Shown here: positions 11,306 to 62,100 of the stretch, piece by piece
Position numbering within the stretch: the stretch's first letter is position 1
Layout of the letters: the number at the start of each line of letters is the position of its first letter
Assembly: GCA_964019425.1 (NCBI GenBank)
Contig: OZ025785.1
Span: 744,001 to 808,000, forward strand
Length of the DNA stretch: 64,000 bases
Direction: 5' to 3'
DNA from: Flectonema sp. DT1601
Lineage: Eukaryota
Program-made: the position numbers and the translations under genes
Notes under the pieces: generated by a model
The model's database searches: none
What the model was told of the DNA's origin: nothing
The model's input: the letters and a program-made list of their open reading frames with translations, nothing else

Positions 11306-11495
11306 ATTTTCTTGAAGAAATCAAAAACAACAACAATAAAAAAAAAGAATAATAAATAAATAATTAAAGCGTAATACACACGATATATAAAAATATTTCG
11401 AATTACTACCGATCTTAGCCCCCCTTCTTATGTACAAAGTTCATTTTCTGTGACCGTTCCAACTTATGCCGCCAGTAAGGAAAGTCATAATTCAG

Positions 11496-14400
11496 GTGCG
11501 AAATTCTAAAGAAATATAAGAATTCAGGGTTCCTAACCAAGTCAGTAGCGTGATAGTTTGACGGTGTAGAAACAGTAATTAACTTTAAAATACCAAAAAT
11601 AAGTAATACGGTATTAAGGTTAAACTTGTTGAAAAATATGACAGAAGATTAAGGTTTCACTTTAGAAATATAGGAATACGACTAACCCGTCAGGAGGGGT
11701 CAACTTAGAAAAACGATACCAGTCTTACAATTGACTTTTCCTAATAAATGTTAATAATGCAATCATCCCCTTTCTTATACTAAAGTTCATTTTACCTGCG
11801 ACGGTTCCAACTTTTGCTGAGTAAGGACCGTCTATGCAGGCTAATTCAGGCAGGTGCGCAATTCTAAAGAAATATAAGAATCCAGGGTTCCTAACCAAGT
11901 CAGTAGCGTGATAGTTTGACGGTGTAGAAACAGTAATTAACTTTAAAATACCAAAAATAAGTAATACGGTATTAAGGTTAAACTTGTTGAAAAATATGAC
12001 AGAAGATTAAGGTTTCACTTTAGAAATATAGGAATACGACTAACCCGTCAGGAGGGGTCAACTTAGAAAAACGATACCAGTCTTACAATTGACTTTTCCT
12101 AATAAATGTTAATAATGCAATCATTCCCTTTCTTTTTCTAAAGTTCATTTTACCTGCGACGGTTCCAACTTTTGCTGCCAGTAAGGACCGTCTATGCAGG
12201 CTAATTCAGGCAGGTGCGCAATTCTAAAGAAATATAAGAATTCAGGGTTCCTAACCAAGTCAGTAGCGTGATAGTTTGACGGTGTAGAAACAGTAATTAA
12301 CTTTAAAATACCAAAAATAAGTAATACGGTATTAAGGTTAAACTTGTTGAAAAATATGACAGAAGATTAAGGTTTCACTTTAGAAATATAGGAATACGAC
12401 TAACCCGTCAGGAGGGGTCAACTTAGAAAAACGATACCAGTCTTACAATTGACTTTTCCTAATAAATGTTAATAATGCAATCATCCCCTTTCTTATACTA
12501 AAGTTCATTTTACCTGCGACGGTTCCAACTTTTGCTGAGTAAGGACCGTCTATGCAGGCTAATTCAGGCAGGTGCGCAATTCTAAAGAAATATAAGAATT
12601 CAGGGTTCCTAACCAAGTCAGTAGCGTGATAGTTTGACGGTGTAGAAACAGTAATTAACTTTAAAATACCAAAAATAAGTAATATAGTATTAAGGTTAAA
12701 CTTGTTGAAAAATATGACAGAAGATTAAGGTTTCACTTTAGAAATATAGGAATACGACTAACCCGTCAGGAGGGGTCAACTTAGAAAAACGATACCAGTC
12801 TTACAATTGACTTTTCCTAATAAATGTTAATAATGCAATCATCCCCTTTCTTATACTAAAGTTCATTTTACCTGCGACGGTTCCAACTTTTGCTGAGTAA
12901 GGACCGTCTATGCAGGCTAATTCAGGCAGGTGCGCAATTCTAAAGAAATATAAGAATTCAGGGTTCCTAACCAAGTCAGTAGCGTGATAGTTTGACGGTG
13001 TAGAAACAGTAATTAACTTTAAAATACCAAAAATAAGTAATATAGTATTAAGGTTAAACTTGTTGAAAAATATGACAGAAGATTAAGGTTTCACTTTAGA
13101 AATATAGGAATACGACTAACCCGTCAGGAGGGGTCAACTTAGAAAAACGATACCAGTCTTACAATTGACTTTTCCTAATAAATGTTAATAATGCAATCAT
13201 TCCCTTTCTTTTTCTAAAGTTCATTTTACCTGCGACGGTTCCAACTTTTGCTGCCAGTAAGGACCGTCTATGCAGGCTAATTCAGGCAGGTGCGCAATTC
13301 TAAAGAAATATAAGAATTCAGGGTTCCTAACCAAGTCAGTAGCGTGATAGTTTGACGGTGTAGAAACAGTAATTAACTTTAAAATACCAAAAATAAGTAA
13401 TACGGTATTAAGGTTAAACTTGTTGAAAAATATGACAGAAGATTAAGGTTTCACTTTAGAAATATAGGAATACGACTAACCCGTCAGGAGGGGTCAACTT
13501 AGAAAAACGATACCAGTCTTACAATTGACTTTTCCTAATAAATGTTAATAATGCAATCATCCCCTTTCTTATACTAAAGTTCATTTTACCTGCGACGGTT
13601 CCAACTTTTGCTGCCAGTAAGGACCGTCTATGCAGGCTAATTCAGGCAGGTGCGCAATTCTAAAGAAATATAAGAATTCAGGGTTCCTAACCAAGTCAGT
13701 AGCGTGATAGTTTGACGGTGTAGAAACAGTAATTAACTTTAAAATACCAAAAATAAGTAATACGGTATTAAGGTTAAACTTGTTGAAAAATATGACAGAA
13801 GATTAAGGTTTCACTTTAGAAATATAGGAATACGACTAACCCGTCAGGAGGGGTCAACTTAGAAAAACGATACCAGTCTTACAATTGACTTTTCCTAATA
13901 AATGTTAATAATGCAATCATCCCCTTTCTTATACTAAAGTTCATTTTACCTGCGACGGTTCCAACTTTTGCTGAGTAAGGACCGTCTATGCAGGCTAATT
14001 CAGGCAGGTGCGCAATTCTAAAGAAATATAAGAATTCAGGGTTCCTAACCAAGTCAGTAGCGTGATAGTTTGACGGTGTAGAAACAGTAATTAACTTTAA
14101 AATACCAAAAATAAGTAATACGGTATTAAGGTTAAACTTGTTGAAAAATATGACAGAAGATTAAGGTTTCACTTTAGAAATATAGGAATACGACTAACCC
14201 GTCAGGAGGGGTCAACTTAGAAAAACGATACCAGTCTTACAATTGACTTTTCCTAATAAATGTTAATAATGCAATCATTCCCTTTCTTTTTCTAAAGTTC
14301 ATTTTACCTGCGACGGTTCCAACTTTTGCTGCCAGTAAGGACCGTCTATGCAGGCTAATTCAGGCAGGTGCGCAATTCTAAAGAAATATAAGAATTCAGG

Positions 14401-14990
14401 GTTCCTAACCAAGTCAGTAGCGTGATAGTTTGACGGTGTAGAAACAGTAATTAACTTTAAAATACCAAAAATAAGTAATACGGTATTAAGGTTAAACTTG
14501 TTGAAAAATATGACAGAAGATTAAGGTTTCACTTTAGAAATATAGGAATACGACTAACCCGTCAGGAGGGGTCAACTTAGAAAAACGATACCAGTCTTAC
14601 AATTGACTTTTCCTAATAAATGTTAATAATGCAATCATCCCCTTTCTTATACTAAAGTTCATTTTACCTGCGACGGTTCCAACTTTTGCTGCCAGTAAGG
14701 ACCGTCTATGCAGGCTAATTCAGGCAGGTGCGCAATTCTAAAGAAATATAAGAATTCAGGGTTCCTAACCAAGTCAGTAGCGTGATAGTTTGAGGTGTAG
14801 AAACAGTAATTAACTTTAAAACACTAAAATAAGTATTTAAGGTTAAACTTGTTGAAAAATATGACAGAAGATTAAGTTTCACTTTAAAAATATAGGAATC
14901 TAGGGGTTCCTAACTAGTCAGCAGGTCAACTTAAGAACAAGTTACCAGTCTTCTACAACAGACTTTTTCCTAATAAATTATAATAACAAT
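11496..14990. repeat. Tandem satellite: nine near-identical 358/360-bp units plus a degenerate tenth
   Basis: Unit starts (gtgcg(c/a)aattctaaagaaatataagaa) at 11496, 11854, 12214, 12572, 12930, 13290, 13650, 14008, 14368, 14728; no ORF in the track. Confidence 0.98.
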
Positions 14991-31134: not shown

Positions 31135-33039
31135 TCAGACTCTCCCACCACAAGAATGACAAAAAGCTCCAAAAGCATGCGCATGACAGATGCGGCAAAC
31201 CTGAGGGGTTGGTGTGTTAACTTGTTGAGTAGTGACCTGTGGTACAGGATTTTGAAATGTCGGTGTATGCTGTTGCTGAGAAACAGGTAACGGTGTAGTT
31301 GCAATATGATACATTTGAGGTGACACATTATGTGCACCACTCGGACTTTGTGTTGGATAAGAGTGCAATCCACTCGAATGCATTACTACTGGTTGAGGCT
31401 CTCGGAAATTAGGAGTCGGTGATCCTGCAGCAAAAACATTACCACCACCAGTGTTATTGTCATGGTGAGTATTATTATTTTGAAGGTGACTATTCGTATT
31501 AAATGATTGGGGTGCCGTCTCAACGTAGGCATTTGCTGGGTTTTGAGGATGCCCATGCCATTGTTGCTGATACTGATGTTGGTGTTGTTGTTGTTGCTGC
31601 TGCTGTTGTTGTGGTGGCTCATATCCCCCGAATGTTATTGCACCAGTTGGAGGATGAGTAGGTTGTGGTTGAGGTTGAGATTGAATCCTAAAAGTTGGTC
31701 TACTCGGACTTCCCTCAAAGCTACCAGAGTCACTACCAGTAGCATTATGATTAACTTCGACACTAGAGTCCATTGTTGTTAATAAACTCCACAACAGGTC
31801 TTCTGTTTTCGATTGTCTGTTTACTAAATTTTGAACCGCCTCCATCATCACTCCAAAGTCTTCCTCTTCATCATCGTCTTGTTGTCTGACGACTACCAGT
31901 TCATTTTTAGGTTTGCGTTTTTGTTGGTGTTGTTGAGGTTTTTGGAAGGAACGTATCTCCTGATGAGTTCCAACATTCTGATGACTACTAACAGAACTCG
32001 CACTAGTGTGTGACATCGGGAGGTGTTGTGGAGTAGATTCCGGAGTAGGTTGCTTTTTAGGAGTTTCGACTGTTTTCATTTCTTTGATCCTCGTCGAGAC
32101 GATTGGAGGTCTATCTCTAACTGGAGGTTGGTCGCTGACCTTTGAGAGGAGAGGTTCGAGTGATGTAACCGGAGGGAGCTCTTTTTCTTCAACAATCATG
32201 TGAGACTCTTCAGAAGGCTGATCACGAAAACTGTGAGATTCAGAAGCTCCGATTGGAATAGCTTCTGGAGATCCTGCTTGAGGAGTTGGAGCATCTACAG
32301 CAAACTTTAAAATAACATGAGTTCCATAACTATGCGTAACCATGAAGTGAGCTTCTTCAATACTATTGACTGGTCTTCCATCGATGTGTGATAATATTCT
32401 ACCTAAAAACTGTTTAACACTTTCATTATCACATGGACTATTAGGAATACTTCTTATGAATGACATGTGATCTGAAAGGCTGAGTCCTATTGACCCCTCT
32501 TCGTCCTTCCTGACGAGTACTTCATCTGACATTGGATCAGGTTGAGGAAGACTCGATAGTATTCTCGACTTCACTGCAGTCAGCGGCTCTGTCTTTCCAA
32601 TTTGCTTTCGTTCAATTGTCATTTGAGGAACTGCTGCAGCAGGCAAACCTTTACCTTGAAAATACCGAGCACGTAAATTACTTATTACTAATAATATCTG
32701 CATTGGGTTACTCCCTTTAATCCCTTCAGTTGTTCTCCATTTAACGACATTATTTGAAAACATCGTTAAAACTATTATTAGTTCAGCTCCGTATTGTCCA
32801 TATATCGCTTCTTTAATATCCTTGTATGGTATCGCCTTTGATACTTTTACCTTATTCGTTGATATAAATAACATGTGTGAAGTGCATACTGCTGTTTGTG
32901 ATTTCCATTTTCCCCCACTCGTGAATCGTTTAATTGCTCCAACATAGTAGACGGCAACGTTTGGATATTCTTGTGATGCGAGCGACTGAATTCTATCCTT
33001 CCCTTTAAGGGGTTCTAGCACGGGCTGTGCTTGCGTCAT
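31135..33039 (-). CDS. PH-like plus PDZ-domain protein with Q/P-rich linker and C-terminal zinc ribbon (634 aa)
   Basis: EVLVRK..GSIGLSL..SPC..GRILSHIDGRPV..HVILKF (PDZ-like); terminal CRIC..FCHSCG. Confidence 0.8.
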   Translation of the reverse strand: MTQAQPVLEPLKGKDRIQSLASQEYPNVAVYYVGAIKRFTSGGKWKSQTAVCTSHMLFISTNKVKVSKAIPYKDIKEAIYGQYGAELIIVLTMFSNNVVKWRTTEGIKGSNPMQILLVISNLRARYFQGKGLPAAAVPQMTIERKQIGKTEPLTAVKSRILSSLPQPDPMSDEVLVRKDEEGSIGLSLSDHMSFIRSIPNSPCDNESVKQFLGRILSHIDGRPVNSIEEAHFMVTHSYGTHVILKFAVDAPTPQAGSPEAIPIGASESHSFRDQPSEESHMIVEEKELPPVTSLEPLLSKVSDQPPVRDRPPIVSTRIKEMKTVETPKKQPTPESTPQHLPMSHTSASSVSSHQNVGTHQEIRSFQKPQQHQQKRKPKNELVVVRQQDDDEEEDFGVMMEAVQNLVNRQSKTEDLLWSLLTTMDSSVEVNHNATGSDSGSFEGSPSRPTFRIQSQPQPQPTHPPTGAITFGGYEPPQQQQQQQQQHQHQYQQQWHGHPQNPANAYVETAPQSFNTNSHLQNNNTHHDNNTGGGNVFAAGSPTPNFREPQPVVMHSSGLHSYPTQSPSGAHNVSPQMYHIATTPLPVSQQQHTPTFQNPVPQVTTQQVNTPTPQVCRICHAHAFGAFCHSCGGRV

Positions 33040-33274
33040 TTCTTGTTGCTAAACAACTGCAAAAAAAAATATGCAATAAACACAATGAACGTAATAATTG
33101 TTTTGATTTTTTTTTTTTTTTTTTTTTTTTTTCTTTTTTGTAAAATACCTACCACGAACCGTAGTAATAGTTAGTTAGTATCATTAATTTTAGAACAGAA
33201 AAGTGAGAATAAGAAAAGTAGAGATCAATAAAAGAAAAGTATTCATTTCTGCAGTTTCCTAACATCAAAGGGTA

Positions 33275-33361
33275 ATAGAATATGTAGTTTCAGGCCTTAA
33301 TCTTATACTACTTGTCCCTTTTTAGGCCTTCATCAGTAAGTTCTAAGGGACTTCATTCTAT
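33275..33361 (-). ncRNA. Hammerhead ribozyme candidate with non-standard strand order
   Basis: Minus strand: AUAGAAUG-AA-GUCCCUU-AGAA-CUUA-CUGAUGA-AGGCCU-AAA-AAGGGAC-AA-GUAGU-A-UAAG-AUUA-AGGCCU-GAA-ACUAC-A-UAUUCUAU. All core nucleotides and stems I, II and III can be assigned. Confidence 0.7.
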
Positions 33362-33440
33362 GTTGAAGTTGCTATCGTTCAAAGATAAAAATCCATCGGA
33401 GCTCGCCAGGATAGGGCTAGCAATGTTTATTTGCTTTTGC

Positions 33441-35050
33441 TCAATTTGAATTTTTGACGTCTGGTCGTTTCACTATTACAGTCGAGTTAATGGATGAGTC
33501 GTCATCCAATTTCCGTTTTATTTTATCTTCGCATATCATCAAAGGTCCTATATTCGCAGGTGTCATTGTAACATCCATATCAGTCTGAGCTTTTAATGGT
33601 ATCATATGGAAACTATACTCTGTAGTTCGGTACATCTTGTCAAAATGATCGAAAGGGAGTCTTAAATCTTTTGTGCCTTTAAGAATGTCTCGGATGATCA
33701 TGGACTCAAATGAGACTAGCGCAACAATAAAGTGAGTCATCCTTGTTTTCGCTTTATGTAGAATAAGTGCTGCGGCTGCTTCAGGATAATCGAAATCTGC
33801 TGGGTTAACGAAGTACTCGATTCTCCTGTTGAATTTAGTCATGCAAGCCATGTTAAGTACTTGTAGCGAGAACCAACCATCTGGTGATGGTTTATGCTCT
33901 GAGTTGTTCGGTTCTACTTTAAGAGATTCTTCATAAAATCGCTGTTGGTAGTTTTGCAGAAAACTGAAGTTAATTCTATCGATATATAAATGATCTGCAA
34001 TGAAGTTGAGCGTTGCCCATCCGCATTCTCCACCGAGAAGACCTTCTCCTGATGTTTGATGTAGGGATGGTGGAAATCGTTTATCCAAGGAATGGCTTGT
34101 AGAGCCTGTGTGGTTAATTGTATCCTTTTCGATGCTTAATGGGACTTTGTGACTAAACTTCTCAAAAGTAAGGTTGAGACGTCGACGCATTGCAGCTGCT
34201 GTATTACCATCATCAATGTGAGAGCTAATGAAGCGGAGGCATGCTGCTCTGATATTGTCAGATTTATAGCCCCGGTTGAGTAATCTATAAGTTACCGCTT
34301 CAAGTTCCTGTAAAAAGTCTGCCTGGTTGTTGCAGATTTTTAGAGCTCGTAAGATCATGGTGGTAAAGATACCTGAACCCATTGATTCTTGAGCTGCGGA
34401 ATGCTGATGGGTAAACCTTGTTGGCGTAATATGCCAACCCCTGGCTTTGTCATTAACACTTAAACGAATCCATCGTTTATTTGTGTTAGTGATCTCTATT
34501 CGGATACGAATTCCTATATAAGAGACATCATCAATGTTATTCGAAGTATCAGTGTAATCCATTGAATATAGACTTGCTGGTGGAGGGTCGCAACTCCAGG
34601 TGAGGAAGTCGTCGATGTATCTACACGAGTGGTCATGTTGCCGAGCTAAGTCTAGATTTTTTGTTTCAATTAAAGAATCGATATATGCGGATTCAACTCT
34701 ATAGCAGTAGAGATTTGTTATATCGCTACTGGCGTTGCCACCCATTGGAATGCCTATTGTTTGTCTCCAAATATAACCTCTTAATGCAATAAAGGAGGAG
34801 TCAATACAGAATTCAAGTAATTTTTGACATTCTGCAAGCGCAAGAGAAGGGAATCGTGTAGGGTCACTCGATTCAAGACGTAAGATATTTTTGAAACTAA
34901 AGGCTTCTTGCAGTGCTTCACTTACTTTAGTTTTAATAGCGTTGTGTGGTAGGCGGGTGTACATTGTTGTAAAATCAAAAGTCTTAGGGGATAATTTTTT
35001 CAAAACCATCAAATTCTGTTTAATCGAACTAGAGACTTCATCATCTGATT
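33441..35050 (-). CDS. PLE reverse transcriptase (N-truncated) with thumb domain and C-terminal Josephin-like cysteine protease domain
   Basis: FDFTTMYTRLPH, RQTIGIPMGGNAS, RYIDD, thumb LRALKICN..DF..LLNRGY; then ECGWATLN, DGWFSLQVLNMA, THFIV, IRD. The ORF-track start codon lies in the flanking duplication and is not a real start. Confidence 0.85.
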
Positions 35051-35067
35051 CCACGAACCGTAGTAAT

Positions 35068-35270
35068 AGTTAGTTAGTTAGTTAGTTATTTAATCCAACG
35101 TTACTGTATATTATGAGTGCTAGGTAACTCGCAGTAACAGAGGACCCAATCCGTAGCCATATCCGAAGATTTCGCATGGATTGTTGAAGTAGCATCGACT
35201 GAAGATTAATAAATACCAATCTCCAGCTTTCCGCCTCGCCTAGCTTATTAAACTATCGAACTAAAATAAA
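35068..35270 (-). mobile_element. Short non-autonomous element family A, copy 1 (related to the PLE 3' UTR)
   Basis: Closely matches 59920-60134; begins with (tagt)n; tgttgaagtagcatcg..aagat..cgcc..ctagc resembles PLE 3' UTR 33361-33421. Confidence 0.75.
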
Positions 35271-36211
35271 ATAAAAAATAAAAAAAATATAAAATAAAAT
35301 AAAATAAAATAAAAAAAAATAATGATATCCATAAGTACCTTCACTATAATTAAATATATAGCAAACTTGAAACTGGTTGACTTATCTAGTTACAATGAAA
35401 TGACACCAACAGTTGGTATCGATAAAATCCTATTTATGCTGACCACGTACTAGTTACAGCTTAGGGGGCGTTGAAATCTTTGAATATATCTATGAAGAAA
35501 TAAATAACCGCATTGAATCAGAGTTAACTAAACAAACGTTAATTGTGATACATATCAACTACAGGTAATGTTAGTATTGGTAGGCACTCTGCAGATGACA
35601 TAGAAGACTTTACATTATAATAAACGTTTCTAACTTTGGCTGCTTACACATATCTTAGTTTAGAGGGGGATCTATGGAGGGGGTGAAGATTTATTTAAAT
35701 TAGCAAAAAAACACTCAAAAAGCTTCTCTGAGAATAGAGTCACAAAAAGTGCTGCCTGTAAAGGTCATGATACTCTGTTGAGCTCACAACAGGCATGTAA
35801 GTTAGAAATAGAGAGGAACAAAACACATTCAACAAAATGTAAAACGGGCTGTGACCATTGCAATCACTCGCCTCTACAGTGTATATTTAAATAGCAGTTC
35901 ACTTCCTCTTCACTTGTCTTCGAATAGAATTAGTGTTGAGAGTCATTTTCAGTTCAAAAATACAATAATCGATTCATAAATTAAAAAAAAAAGAATTTAA
36001 AATAAAAAAAAAACGCAGTTAGAATATGAGTTTGTTATGTAAACATCATAAAAAAAAATAAAATCTCTTTCTAAAGTAAAGAATAGAAAGGGAAATTCGG
36101 ATGACTTTCAGAAACAAGCTTCCCTTTTAATATTTTAAAAAGGATTATACTTGTTGTCATGAAACATAAGTTTATCACCCGATGTTAAAGAATCATCACT
36201 GAACATCACTC

Positions 36212-38182: not shown

Positions 38183-40537
38183 TCAGACCCGACAAACTGG
38201 CTTTGGGGACTCAATCAAGACTTCTTCCATTACTTCAACGTCATTGATGGAAGATAGAGAAGAACTTGTTGATTCGATGTCGTTCATTCTATGTTTCCTT
38301 TTTCTAAAACAACAGCAGTAGACAACAGCAATCACAATACTGGTCAGGAAGACAAGGCAAATACTTCCAATAATAATTAACACGTAATTCTTGTCATCAT
38401 CATCACCACCCTCTCCGTGATCCCCCTCTGGGATAGAACTGGCAGCCACAACATTAGTTCCTGTGAATACATTGGAAGTTTTGGCGACTGCCGCGACGTC
38501 AGATTCAATTATTTCAACAGCGTTGCTGAAGCTCGCTCCCTGTTCCATCGTCAATTGGTATTCAACATATGATGAACCAGACTCACTAATAGAAACTTCT
38601 CTTTCGCTTTCACTCCCTTCCACGCATCCGGCAGCGGCTCTCAACACCACCGTCCCAGGACAGGCAAGAGAAACACACGCGGAACTCGGACACGCAAACA
38701 GAATAGCAACCTCCTTGACGAGAACACCGTTCTTGTTGGCTGACTTCAAAACAGCATCCTTCAACTGAGTGAATGATATCTGAGATGGTGACTTCTGTAT
38801 CTCAAGAAACGTCCTTAATGACCGTCTGGAGAGTTCATTGCTTACTTCGCGCCCTTCGGCTCCTTTCTCACCATCACGTCCTTCTCCTTTCTCGCCATCA
38901 CGGTCTTCTCCGTTGCGTCCTTCAGGCTTCTCACCGTCACGGTCTTCTCCGTTGCGCCCTTCAGGTTTTTCTCCGTTACGGTCCTCAGGTTTTTCACCGT
39001 CACGGTCTTCTCCGTTGCGTCCTTCAGGCTTCTCACCGTCACGGTCTTCTCCGTTGCGCCCTTCAGGTTTTTCTCCGTCACGGTCCTCTCCGTTGCGTCC
39101 TTCAGGTTTTTCACCGTCACGGTCTTCTCCGTTGCGCCCTTCAGGTTTTTCTCCGTCACGGTCCTCTCCGTTGCGTCCTTCAGGTTTTTCACCGTCACGG
39201 TCTTCTCCGTTGCGCCCTTCAGGTTTTTCTCCGTTACGGTCTTCTCCGTTGAGCCCTTCACGTTTTTCACCGTCACGCTTTTCGCCTGTTTCTCCGTCAC
39301 GGTCTTCTCCGTTGCGTCCTTCAGGTTTTTCTCCGTTACGGTCTTCTCCGTTGCGCCCTTCAGGTTTTTCTCCGTCACGGTCCTCTCCGTTGCGTCCTTC
39401 AGGTTTTTCACCGTCACGGTCTTCTCCGTTGCGTCCTTCAGGTTTTTCACCGTCACGGTCTTCTCCGTTGCGCCCTTCAGGTTTTTCTCCGTTACGGTCT
39501 TCTCCGTTGCGCCCTTCAGGTTTTTCTCCGTTACGGTCTTCTCCGTTGAGCCCTTCACGTTTTTCACCGTCACGCTTTTCGCCTGTTTCTCCGTCACGGT
39601 CTTCTCCGTTGCGTCCTTCAGGTTTTTCTCCGTTACGGTCTTCTCCGTTGAGCCCTTCACGTTTTTCACCGTCACGCTTTTCGCCTGTTTCTCCGTCACG
39701 GTCTTCTCCGTTGCGCCCTTCAGGTTTTTCTCCGTTACGGTCTTCTCCGTTGCGCCCTTCAGGTTTTTCTCCGTTACGGTCTTCTCCGTTGAGCCCTTCA
39801 CGTTTTTCACCGTCACGCTTTTCGCCTGTTTCTCCGTCACGGTCTTCTCCGTTGCGTCCTTCAGGCTTTTCTCCGTTACGGTCTTCTCCGTTGAGCCCTT
39901 CACGTTTTTCACCGTCACGCTTTTCGCCTGTTTCTCCGTCACGGTCTTCTCCGTTGCGCCCTTCAGGTTTTTCACCGTCACGGTCTTCTCCGTTGAGCCC
40001 TTCACGTTTTTCACCGTCACGCTTTTCGCCTGTTTCTCCGTCACGGTCTTCTCCGTTGCGCCCTTCAGGTTTTTCTCCGTTACGGTCTTCTCCGTTGCGT
40101 TCTTCAGGTTTTTCACCGTTACGCTTTTCGCCTTTTTCTCCGTCACGGTCCTCCCCGCTGCGCCCTTCAGGCTTCTCACCGTCACGGTCTTCTCCGTTGC
40201 GCCCTTCAGGCTTCTCACCGTCACGGTCTTCTCCGTTGCGCCCTTCAGGTTTTTCTCCGTTACGGTCTTCTCCGTTGCGTCCTTCAGGCTTCTCACCGTC
40301 ACGGTTTTCTCCGTTGAGCCCTTCACGTTTTTCTCCGTCACGCTTTTTTCCCTTGTCAGTAAACATGTCATCAGTTGAACTCATCGATGAGTTAGATGAG
40401 GATGAGTTGATATCATCTTTGACAGTTGGCAACAACTTGTCTCCATCATTCGTACCAGTCACGACGCTCGGATTCATATCTTCTGAAGAAAGACAAACCG
40501 CGATCAGCGACACAAATAATATCATGCGAGAACACAT
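38183..40537 (-). CDS. Type I surface protein, long paralog with ~500-aa charged tandem repeat (784 aa)
   Basis: Same signal peptide, Cys domain and TM as 36212-37207; repeats GEDRNGEKPEGRN and GEDRDGETGEKRDGEKREGLN. Confidence 0.88.
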   Translation of the reverse strand: MCSRMILFVSLIAVCLSSEDMNPSVVTGTNDGDKLLPTVKDDINSSSSNSSMSSTDDMFTDKGKKRDGEKREGLNGENRDGEKPEGRNGEDRNGEKPEGRNGEDRDGEKPEGRNGEDRDGEKPEGRSGEDRDGEKGEKRNGEKPEERNGEDRNGEKPEGRNGEDRDGETGEKRDGEKREGLNGEDRDGEKPEGRNGEDRDGETGEKRDGEKREGLNGEDRNGEKPEGRNGEDRDGETGEKRDGEKREGLNGEDRNGEKPEGRNGEDRNGEKPEGRNGEDRDGETGEKRDGEKREGLNGEDRNGEKPEGRNGEDRDGETGEKRDGEKREGLNGEDRNGEKPEGRNGEDRNGEKPEGRNGEDRDGEKPEGRNGEDRDGEKPEGRNGEDRDGEKPEGRNGEDRNGEKPEGRNGEDRDGETGEKRDGEKREGLNGEDRNGEKPEGRNGEDRDGEKPEGRNGEDRDGEKPEGRNGEDRDGEKPEGRNGEDRDGEKPEGRNGEDRDGEKPEGRNGEDRDGEKPEDRNGEKPEGRNGEDRDGEKPEGRNGEDRDGEKGEGRDGEKGAEGREVSNELSRRSLRTFLEIQKSPSQISFTQLKDAVLKSANKNGVLVKEVAILFACPSSACVSLACPGTVVLRAAAGCVEGSESEREVSISESGSSYVEYQLTMEQGASFSNAVEIIESDVAAVAKTSNVFTGTNVVAASSIPEGDHGEGGDDDDKNYVLIIIGSICLVFLTSIVIAVVYCCCFRKRKHRMNDIESTSSSLSSINDVEVMEEVLIESPKPVCRV
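38850..40345. repeat. Coding minisatellite of 39-bp and 63-bp units
   Basis: Repeated cacggtcttctccgttgcgcccttcaggtttttctccgt and variants. Confidence 0.95.
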
Positions 40538-41054
40538 TTTGTATTTGAATAGAAACTGTTGGTTATAAATATAAAATAAATAATTTTATCAAAAGGATAC
40601 CACAGTAACTGAGTCTGGGGAATAGCAATGATAAGCTGAACATACTGCGAGTTAGTAGCTGACCCTCCGCCTTTGTAATCACAAATGACGTTCATCTGTT
40701 GCATATCTGGAAAAAGAATAAATAACTACCAACAGAAACAATCATCACAAGTAGGTATTCGATAACAGGGATACTACAGGAATACAACTCAGTAGTACCT
40801 CCTTGTTTACAGCGTCGTACTCGATGGTCACTTCTGTTTCAGCTCTCAGATGTAACAGCACAAGGGAAGGGATACAACACAAACTAAGGGAAGACAACGT
40901 GAACCATACAAAGTACTCAGACAATTATCAACAACGATTTCAAACAATCACTCTCTGTTGCTGGAGTAGCAGTAGAACCTTATTTACTAAAATTAATAAA
41001 TTAATGAGAGATATAGATTCTCTCACGTATTGGTTTCGTTATTCTTTTTTTGTT

Positions 41055-41258
41055 CCGACGTAGTCGGAGAAGAAACTATTCAGATTGAAAGCCGTTACTT
41101 TTTATAGTCGTGATACAGTTCACAGTGCGACAGATTCTGTCTGCGTTCAATAAAACAATGTCTGGAGTTAACCCCAACAAACTTCATCTGTCGTTTGGAG
41201 CAGGACTGCAAGCCCCTACAGTCTGCGTTCAACGAAATATAAGGCTAATCAGAATGTG
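41055..41258 (+). repeat. Dispersed repeat family B copy carrying a 70-bp secondary insertion
   Basis: Terminal hairpin ccgac-gta-gtcgg; insert 41151-41220 between two gtctgcgttcaa copies. Confidence 0.78.
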
Positions 41259-42234
41259 CTTTTTTTTTTTTTTTTTTTTTTTTCTTCTTAAAAATGAAAA
41301 CAAATCAAATAGAAACAGATTCACAACTAAAAATAATAACGACACGGGGGTTGGGAAGAATCTGCTTAACGTTGGCTTCCCCTACTTCACGCAAAGACTA
41401 ATAAAGAAGAACTTGAGAAAATAGAACACTCGGAAGCTTTAAACGAAAACTAAAACGACGAGGGGGCGTCTCCTTACTGTCTAAAAAAAAAAAAAATCAA
41501 AGGGGGAAAAAAAAGGGGAAAATGTCTTTTTCCCCATTCGTATCACGCATTAAAATATCGGGTTCGGTTAGGCACTCCGACAAAAGGACCAACAACAACA
41601 ATCAAAAAAAAAAAAAAAAAAAAATGACGAATTTAAAGAAAATCACTCGAAATCAACTGTTGTTGGGGGAAAGGGAAATAATGCGCCGTATCCACAGCTG
41701 AGTACTGCAGGTAACTCGCATTACGTAGAGTCTCATCGTTTAAGGCAACCCTGTAGAACAAATCATTCACATAGGATGAACGACTAATAATATACGGAAG
41801 GAACAAGAAAACCATTCAGATTGAGGGAGGAACCGATTCTGTTCTGGTTTTAAATAAAAGGACTGGCTGTGAAGACAATCTCGCAAAGCAACAAGTGAAA
41901 TTTTAAAACCCCCACTTTGTCAGGCATCTTCTGCCACGGAAACGTATGAAAGGAATTTACTCTTTTCACAAACAAAAACAAAATAATAATAATAATTATA
42001 ATTACAGAGATGGGGAACACGTTTTCCACAAACCCATTCAATAAATACCACAATAGGAATACACACTTATGAGACTGCCATAGTAAGTATAGACGTAAAG
42101 GAAAAACATAACAGATAAATACGGTCATCATGATGCCCTCGTAACCATCGAGAAGGTTTAGAAATAACGGAGTAGGTAAGGTTGGTAATGTTCAGTTCTA
42201 CCACCTGAACAGAATCTTTAGTAGTTTCACAGTC

Positions 42235-58100: not shown

Positions 58101-58865
58101 CATACTACTAACTAAGGCAGCGAAACAGTTAGTTAAAATAGATAATGGAACAGTGTGAGGAATACTCTGTCACCAATAAACAATTGAATAAAATAAAATA
58201 AAAAGAAAGACTTGGTACACCTCCAATAAAGGTGCGAGACTTCTTTCCGAATGTAACCACGGATGGCTGTTTTGGAAACTTAAGAAACGAATAGTACGAA
58301 TAGGATAGACCAAACAGATGAGGCAAAGAGTTTTCGATTTAAGGGGGGGGATTTTTAAAGGAAAAAAGGCCAGATAAAAAGAAGAGAAAAAAAAAAAAAA
58401 TCTCTTTTGCTCAAAAAAAAAAAAAAAAAAAAAAAAAAAAACATGACGAAAAATAATCATCAGAAGCCCAGAACAAGAAAAAATCACTCTCCTGGAGCTT
58501 CAAATTACAAAAAAAAAAATTGTCTTTTTTCTCTTCTTGCTGAATTACGGACCCCTGTGCATTTTTCCACTTGACTAATAACTCTCAACCTCATGACTGA
58601 AGGCCGCTAGTCACAATGAACGCCACAGTTTAGTTGAAAAAAAGATACTTAAAAAAAGGAAGAAAGCTACTCTACGAAAACGCTTCTCTTTAAATAACAC
58701 CAGATGAAGTAATTTTTTTTATTTAAAATTACTTACTTTTGGTCTTTTTTTTTTTTTTTTTTTTATATTATTATTATCATTTATATTCAGAAGATAAAGA
58801 AACTAACTAAACAACCACACCACTCCAATAGCAAAGATGGAAAGAAGAAAAAGAAAGAGAAAAAA

Positions 58866-58989
58866 ACCATTCAGATTAGCCTTTTATTTCGTTGAACGCA
58901 GAAAATCCTGTCGCAAGGAGGAAAATAAATCATGATCATAAGAAATAACGGCTTTCAATCTGAATAGTTTCTTCTCCGACCACAGTCGG
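58866..58989 (-). repeat. Dispersed repeat family B, uninterrupted copy
   Basis: Reverse complement matches 41055-41258 minus the insert; hairpin ccgac-caca-gtcgg at 58976-58989. Confidence 0.78.
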
Positions 58990-59919
58990 TACAACAAAAA
59001 AAAAAGAAAAAAAGAAGAAAAAAAAAAGAAACGAAGATGATCTCAGTTTACATGGTATCAGAATCCAAATGCCATACATTTTGTTCTGCATAAGAATTGA
59101 AAGAGGGAACAGGGTTAAGTAATGAAAGGAAAAAATAAAAAAACAAATCAATGTATGATTGTTTTGCAGCTTGCGCTTGACTTCCTTTTTTTCCCTCAAG
59201 TTAAACAAGAGGATACCTAAAGCATAGGAAAAAGAGTTACCATAAGATCACAGCGCAAATGTTTTAAGTGCTCAGCCAAACGACACTCTTTGCCTGCAGA
59301 AACAAAGTGATCTATTACAAAGCACCCGATAGCGAGATTCGGGTGTACAGTAAAAAACCATCTTTTGTTCGAGCAACGTAAAGATTTTTCTTTTTTCTAC
59401 ATGTCGACGCTTTCTTTAGGAAGTAAGAAACTTGACTACACAAATCACATCGCACAAGTAAAAGGGGACTGGTTAACATAAGACTGAGGTTTCTTTTTTC
59501 TTTTTTTTTTTCCTTGTTGTAGTTTTTTTTTGTTTCCCTCTTCCTCACCATGTTTAGTTAGCAAAATACAATGTTTTATCGTACTGCAAACAAACAAACT
59601 AACAAAAAAAAAATTAGAAACAAAAAAAATAATTTTCCGAAAAAATAATTTTTTTAAAAAAAATAAAAAAAAATTTTGGACTAGGGGAAGGGAAGGTCCA
59701 ATTATTTATAATTCACCCATCAGTCATCCAACCTGAAAGTGAAGCTCTCGGAAAAATCAAATTTGAAAAAAAAAAAAAAAAAAACCATTATTAGAGCATG
59801 GAAATGAATAAGCCGTCTGCTGCTTTCTCTCGCACTTATTAAGACGGCAATTATTATTTCCCACTCTATGTCTTTGATGTACCAACAAAGACTAACAACG
59901 GCAAAGTATACACATATAC

Positions 59920-60134
59920 TAGTTAGTTTAGTTTGACAGTTATATAATCCAACGTTGCCGTATATTATGAGTGCTCTAGGGAGGGTAACTCACAGTAACA
60001 AGGACCCAATCCGTAGCCATATCCGAAGATTCCTTCGCATGGATTGTTGAAGTAGCATCGACTTATAGACTAATGAATACCTATCTCCAGCTTTCCGCCT
60101 CTCCTAGCTTATTAAACTATCGAACTAAAATAAA
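59920..60134 (-). mobile_element. Short non-autonomous element family A, copy 2
   Basis: taatccaacgtt..tatattatgagtgct..gacccaatccgtagccatatccgaagatt..agcttattaaactatcgaactaaaataaaa shared with copy 1. Confidence 0.75.
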
Positions 60135-60368
60135 ACAAAAAAAAAAAAAAAAAATTAAAAATCAACAAAAATTAAAATGGGATACACTGATAATATACTA
60201 TCACGACAACAGCAACAAAAAAAAAAAAAAAAAAAAAAATTGGAATACAAAGAATCCCTGAAACAGAATGTTTGGTTGCAGAAATAAGCAGGTCTACAAA
60301 AAAAAAGAAAATGGAGAAAAAAAAAGGGGAGGGGGAAGGGTATTCAAGGCAATGTATTCGCGCCAAGC

Positions 60369-61971: not shown

Positions 61972-62100
61972 TAGTTAGTTAGTATCATTATTTTTTTAGT
62001 AGAAACGTTAGTATCAAAGTTCTTACATAATTCAACGTTGCTGTATATTATGAGTGCTAGGTAACTCACAGTAACAGAGGACCGGATTGTTTAAGTAGAT
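61972..62100 (-). mobile_element. Short non-autonomous element family A, copy 3 (internally deleted; terminus identical to the PLE terminus)
   Basis: tagttagttagtatcatta is identical to 33168-33186; body matches copies 1 and 2. Confidence 0.7.

Follow-up and report, generated by a model that had tools for sequence, protein, structure and literature searches.

The 64-kb stretch of DNA analyzed here, called the window below, holds a single, truncated copy of a retrotransposon on its minus strand, with a compact RNA motif in the 3' untranslated region (UTR). The element comprises the following features.

33441 to 35054, minus strand: 5'-truncated open reading frame (ORF) of the element, read as a frame from 35069 to 33441, encoding a reverse transcriptase (RT) and a probably Josephin-like C-terminal domain.
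33180 to 33440, minus strand: 3' UTR of the element; contigs from runs X1 and X2 reach 33169 and 33175, respectively.
33275 to 33361, minus strand: type CSG hammerhead motif, 87 nt with five helices.
33152 to 33179: 3' copy of a 28-nt direct repeat, a target duplication that is partly the element's own (ACTA)n end.
35051 to 35078: 5' copy of the 28-nt direct repeat, at the truncation point.

The ORF gave no Pfam match. It corresponds to residues 814 to 1350 of P0019, a member of the family, from which it differs at 6 of 537 amino acids, and is 66% identical to a cluster of 24 proteins and 98% identical to a cluster of 59; these matches indicate that the element family is repeated and young. 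The full-length members P0019 and P0023 have an N-terminal GIY-YIG domain, with weak Pfam matches (E values of 0.15 and 0.0073, respectively) and a visible motif, and this domain is missing from the window copy through truncation. Full-length members contain a CxC motif in addition to the RT, and their endonuclease lacks the Naiad-type CxxC zinc finger. In fold, the modeled RT matched telomerase best (E value of 7.3e-5), followed closely by group II intron RTs. An RT tree was built from 89 of 94 RT regions, five being dropped for short or overlong matches, and it placed the window family in a clade of eight (support of 0.998) that contains none of the 47 CxxC-type sequences. The nearest named relative in the RT comparison was from the diplonemid Flectonema neradi. 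By the features given in the available parts of Craig et al. 2021 (PMC8557442), the element is a Chlamys-type Penelope-like element (PLE): the Naiad and Chlamys elements described there share the N-terminal GIY-YIG domain, the CxC motif, and the RT, and Chlamys-1_cBra also has a Josephin-like tail. The C-terminal domain in the window had no direct Pfam match and no PDB sequence match. Its C, H, and D residues align with those of a relative that is Josephin positive in Pfam, and a fold search returned Josephin and C39 peptidases at E values of 0.06 to 0.5; on this weak evidence, the domain is probably Josephin-like. The relatives P0038, P0040, P0080, P0081, P0084, and P0105 carry deubiquitinase-type domains (UCH or Josephin), which suggests that such proteases were captured repeatedly by this PLE group.

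Several other sequences lie near the element or elsewhere in the window. An A-run at 33107 to 33140 (minus strand) was considered as a poly(A) tail of the element and was rejected, because it falls beyond the direct repeat and the window has many runs of this kind. A noncoding repeat of about 250 nt (35079 to 35320) adjoins the 5' end of the truncated element and recurs twice, at 59917 to 60177 and 62028 to 62083, with 86% and 95% likeness. Its minus strand terminates in (ACTA)n, its fold consists of two hairpins (z of -1.33), it has no match in Rfam, and run X2 contains a relative; the stretch from 61972 to 62014 resembles the element's own 3' end (81%). This repeat may be a nonautonomous partner of the element. 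Just downstream of the insertion begins a frame of 637 codons (31135 to 33048, minus strand) without a Pfam match, and a cut in read-through RNA of the element could shield that frame. Farther away, a tandem array at 11462 to 14793 consists of about nine units of 358 to 360 bp that are 98 to 100% alike, and CUGAnGA occurs on neither strand of the unit. A long array of a 39-nt unit (38790 to 40580) shows open frames on both strands and a strong base skew. Two pairs of inverted sequences (41060 to 41284 and 58840 to 58983), 55 and 63 nt in length, 84 to 89% complementary, and about 17.6 kb apart, are possibly another dispersed repeat.

The motif starts 79 nt past the stop codon and ends 95 nt short of the flanking repeat, a position that bears out its earlier placement in a Penelope-like 3' UTR. 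Eckert et al. 2023 (PMC10085705) treat the hammerhead as three blocks, C, S, and G, and name its types by their order, and the motif is laid out below in those terms.

33324 to 33340, minus strand: block C, composed of CUUA (33340 to 33337; 5' strand of stem I), CUGAUGA (33336 to 33330), and AGGCCU (33329 to 33324; 5' strand of stem II).
33302 to 33311, minus strand: block S, composed of GUAGU (33311 to 33307; 5' strand of stem III), A17 (the A at 33306), and UAAG (33305 to 33302; 3' strand of stem I).
33284 to 33297, minus strand: block G, composed of AGGCCU (33297 to 33292; 3' strand of stem II), GAA (33291 to 33289), and ACUAC (33288 to 33284; 3' strand of stem III).
33314 to 33351, minus strand: 7-bp helix (33351 to 33345 with 33320 to 33314) around block C, linking stems I and II.
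33354 to 33361, minus strand: 5' strand of the outer 8-bp helix, with its partner at 33282 to 33275 and pair probabilities of 0.64 to 0.99.

Rereading the sequence confirmed the core, the GUA site, and all five helices at the minus-strand coordinates that the preliminary description had assigned to them. Stems I, II, and III have 4, 6, and 5 bp, respectively, and every pair is Watson-Crick, as in the 7-bp helix. The outer helix has one terminal G-U pair and completes a three-way junction whose linkers are 2, 2, and 1 nt long. All of the hammerhead core bases (CUGAnGA, GAAA, and NUH) are present, the stems directly adjoin CUGAUGA, GAA, and the GUA triplet without insertions, and the core halves are 38 nt apart. 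The block order is C-S-G, which is nonnested and thus lies outside the nested order of hammerhead types I to III, as had been claimed. That this order might be undescribed did not hold, as it is already type CSG of Eckert et al., of which two natural sequences cleave. By analogy with those sequences (PMC10085705), the cut is predicted between 33306 and 33305, after GUA. Stem I, with 4 bp, is weak, at +0.3 kcal/mol as a lone duplex, and stem II begins with an A-U pair and has a palindromic strand, AGGCCU. The first pair of stem II in hammerheads is usually G-C.

Standard models do miss the motif, as had been anticipated: Rfam returned no hammerhead at the gathering score in the whole window and none at E values up to 10 in 33100 to 35400. 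We also looked for a conventional hammerhead fold of type I or III that would draw on a remote substrate strand, and rejected it. The best alternative S block within 400 nt on either side offers 3 plus 3 bp, and no better strand was found in that range or elsewhere in 33150 to 35320. A loose CSG descriptor (stems of at least 4 bp, G-U permitted) matched the 64-kb window once, at this motif, and matched none of 60 locally shuffled windows, both strands being searched. A pattern with the core and stem I fixed, scanned against viral and metagenome collections, gave 11 viral and 49 metagenome matches; stems II and III both reached at least 4 bp in none of the 60, compared with 6 and 5 bp in the window. 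The motif scans of those collections thus gave chance matches or none and no relative, and a protein scan found no related loci in metagenome or viral contigs. In the minimum-energy fold (z of -2.95), the outer helix, the 7-bp helix, and stem III form a nested scaffold, and 2 of 200 shuffles were equally stable. Stems I and II are absent from this nested fold model because they are pseudoknots between the two hairpin loops, and the earlier proposal that the loops pair through these stems is supported. The nested prediction also contains local folds within the loops that compete.

Conservation was examined in assembled contigs, and the comparison with RNA run X2, which covers a small share of the 64-kb stretch, rests on these contigs. 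A relative's contig in run X2, over 33247 to 33949, has 40 other letters and 8 gaps relative to the window. Only 3 differences in 192 positions fall in 33247 to 33439 (33362 and 33381 among those listed), and none of the listed differences is within 33268 to 33361, making the motif invariant in this one diverged copy. Zero changes in 87 nt would be expected with a probability of 0.25 if the UTR rate is assumed and of 0.0014 if the coding rate is. The invariance fits constraint but is not specific to the motif, since the entire UTR is conserved. In run X1, one contig departs from the window sequence at 33278 and retains five of the eight bases of the 3' strand of the outer helix, so that some copies may have a shorter version of this helix.

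We think it probable that the locus carries a type CSG hammerhead in a Chlamys-type Penelope-like 3' UTR, predicted to cut the element RNA in cis after the GUA ending at 33306. Folding would begin with two hairpins, that of the 7-bp helix and that of stem III; pairing between their loops, by way of stems I and II, would then assemble the standard core. Hammerhead products end in a 2',3'-cyclic phosphate and a 5'-OH, and cleavage after A33306 would leave these ends. As the cut falls within the central block, pairing over 23 bp in four helices (I, II, III, and outer) would keep the products together, whereas the products of a type I hammerhead are held by stem I alone. This pairing may amount to a clamped, possibly reversible nick that holds together the ends of a unit RNA, and the role of the ribozyme would be the processing of read-through or tandem transcripts into unit RNAs. 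This reading as a whole is favored by the presence of every core base and all five helices, by the lack of chance matches, by a block order and joining helix like those of CSG-1 and CSG-2, which come from soil and cleave, by the domains of the family members (GIY-YIG, CxC, and telomerase-like RT), by the nematode Naiad motifs described below, and by the run X2 contig with no listed difference in the motif. Against it are the weak stem I, the A-U first pair of stem II, the five of eight outer-helix bases in the run X1 contig, a Chara Chlamys record in which no core was seen by eye, and an anole element for which hammerhead cleavage was reported to be dispensable for insertion in vitro (PMC11167929).

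The main rival, unlikely although worth weighing, is that the same core forms chiefly between two RNAs or tandem copies; the 7-bp hairpin loop of one copy would then pair with the other copy's stem III loop, and cleavage would depend on tandem insertion or concentration. Both strands of stem II are the same palindrome, so that pairing between molecules costs nothing extra (-9.1 kcal/mol), but stem II is nonpalindromic in the Naiad and soil CSG motifs. Linkers of 1 to 2 nt in the junction connect two helices at their far ends, a geometry that Eckert et al. (PMC10085705) did not regard as clearly compatible with the crystal structure; a rough length estimate, however, would permit a path in cis, with about 39 Å to span and up to about 60 Å available. 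Dimer activity has also been proposed for many PLE hammerheads, often with a short stem III (Cervera and de la Pena 2014, PMC4209133), while stem III in the window motif is stable within one molecule.

We regard as quite improbable a real hammerhead-derived fold with little or no cleavage, whose role near the 3' end of the element would be that of a structural signal or of one bound by protein. The weak stem I, the A-U first pair of stem II, and the competing local folds in the loops agree with such a signal, as do the slow published rates of CSG cleavage and the anole element that needs no cleavage in vitro (PMC11167929). Yet all catalytic bases are intact, the ORF of the same copy is intact over 537 amino acids, and the Naiad cores, inspected by eye, are kept despite different stems. 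A chance arrangement of motifs within an AT-rich UTR is scarcely credible: a single full copy is readable and the viral and metagenome collections hold no relative, but none of the 60 shuffles or 60 look-alike matches attains the motif, and related elements have the same architecture at the same position.

The hammerhead predicted to cut in cis differs from those of canonical PLEs, in which type I or minimal hammerheads have the nested C-G-S order and likewise place the core in the terminal region of the element (PMC4209133). The Naiad and Chlamys clades were reported to be without canonical hammerheads except in two plant and algal subclades, some Chara and spike-moss elements carrying canonical type I motifs (PMC8557442). 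The same source lists eight "HHR_half_core" families with core halves 35 to 50 nt apart in the 3' UTR, a range that includes the 38 nt of the window motif; in its available parts, these half-cores were not interpreted as permuted ribozymes. We inspected consensus sequences in the supplement of that paper by eye rather than by computation, and word searches of it miss cores of other sequence or cores split across lines. An intact CSG motif with a joining helix was seen in all seven nematode Naiad 3' regions inspected (one record preceding Naiad_Parc, then Parc, 1_Nbra, 2_Nbra, 3_Nbra, Hcon, and Hpol). These are not seven independent origins, as two Pristionchus records are near identical and all are nematodes. 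Read by eye, their stems have 5 to 6 bp (I), 4 to 5 bp (II), and 6 to 12 bp (III), with a joining helix of 9 to 16 bp; the cores are CUGAUGA, CUGACGA, or CUGAGGA, and the sites are GUC or GUU. Stem II is GUCC/GGAC, GCCUC/GAGGC, or GCCAC/GUGGC, nonpalindromic in contrast to AGGCCU/AGGCCU in the window, and the stems vary in sequence and length among themselves and relative to the window, with pairing kept. By the same inspection, three of the eight half-core families (Parc, 3_Nbra, and Hpol) have an intact CSG motif, and Ovul is apparently a split form. The Josephin-bearing Chara Chlamys record showed no hammerhead core in its 3' region, and no CSG motif was seen in any Chlamys passage inspected (PMC8557442). 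In several nonnematode Naiad 3' regions, likewise read by eye, hammerhead blocks showed an S-G-C order, in which the 5' strand of stem II is upstream instead of after CUGAnGA; such records adjoin coral, cubozoan, and octopus entries, among others, in the supplement.

The strand order itself is therefore not new, being type CSG of Eckert et al. 2023; what is new is its setting in a Chlamys-type PLE. Two features are variants: the outer helix closing the three-way junction, and a stem II that is palindromic and starts with an A-U pair. A literature search, which covered few subscription journals, found no published link of type CSG to PLEs, and none appears in the available parts of PMC13725137 and bioRxiv 10.64898/2026.07.22.740005. 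Type CSG, so far two orphan soil sequences, is now placed in a eukaryotic genome and a defined retrotransposon, and the nematode Naiad reading points to many natural examples. This offers a direct answer to the apparent absence of hammerheads from Naiad and Chlamys and bears on whether PLEs need self-cleavage, and the three-way junction places limits on the geometry of permuted hammerheads, which is unsolved. As a tentative and somewhat doubtful extension, much of the Naiad/Chlamys clade might use non-circularly permuted hammerheads as its standard ribozyme, in hosts ranging from protists to nematodes, corals, and molluscs, with the junction in the window acting as a clamp for religation or circularization of the element RNA. 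If true, the orphan soil CSG sequences and the "missing" Naiad/Chlamys ribozymes would both be explained.

The known type CSG comprises two unique sequences, five in all, from soil metagenome DNA (PMC10085705). CSG-1 and CSG-2 cut where predicted, with rates of 0.004 and 0.026 per min, have no known host or element in the available text, and had their biological relevance graded as resting on weaker evidence by Eckert et al. Like the window motif, they have the C-S-G order and were found in DNA, and a helix runs from upstream of stem I to just past stem II, equivalent to the 7-bp helix; the joining helix has 8 bp with 2 nt to stem III in CSG-1 and CSG-2 and 7 bp with a 2-nt link in the window. 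They differ from it in a 6-bp stem I, a G-C first pair of stem II, and a nonpalindromic stem II, compared with 4 bp, A-U, and a palindrome in the window. The published alignment, which does not display the flanks, has no outer helix, and there is no sequence likeness to the window beyond the core. The one CSG search descriptor file available requires stem II to start with a G-C pair and allows no more than 10 nt from stem II to stem III (PMC10085705). With an A-U pair and 12 nt, the window motif would escape this descriptor, and the mismatch explains a miss, not a different class. Type SGC, represented by HRIMA-1 and its variants, differs in having a different open end and in occurring in metatranscriptomes beside hairpin ribozymes, in proposed circular RNA agents (PMC10085705). 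It shares the strand connectivity of the window motif up to a circular permutation, and its cleavage depends on a joining helix.
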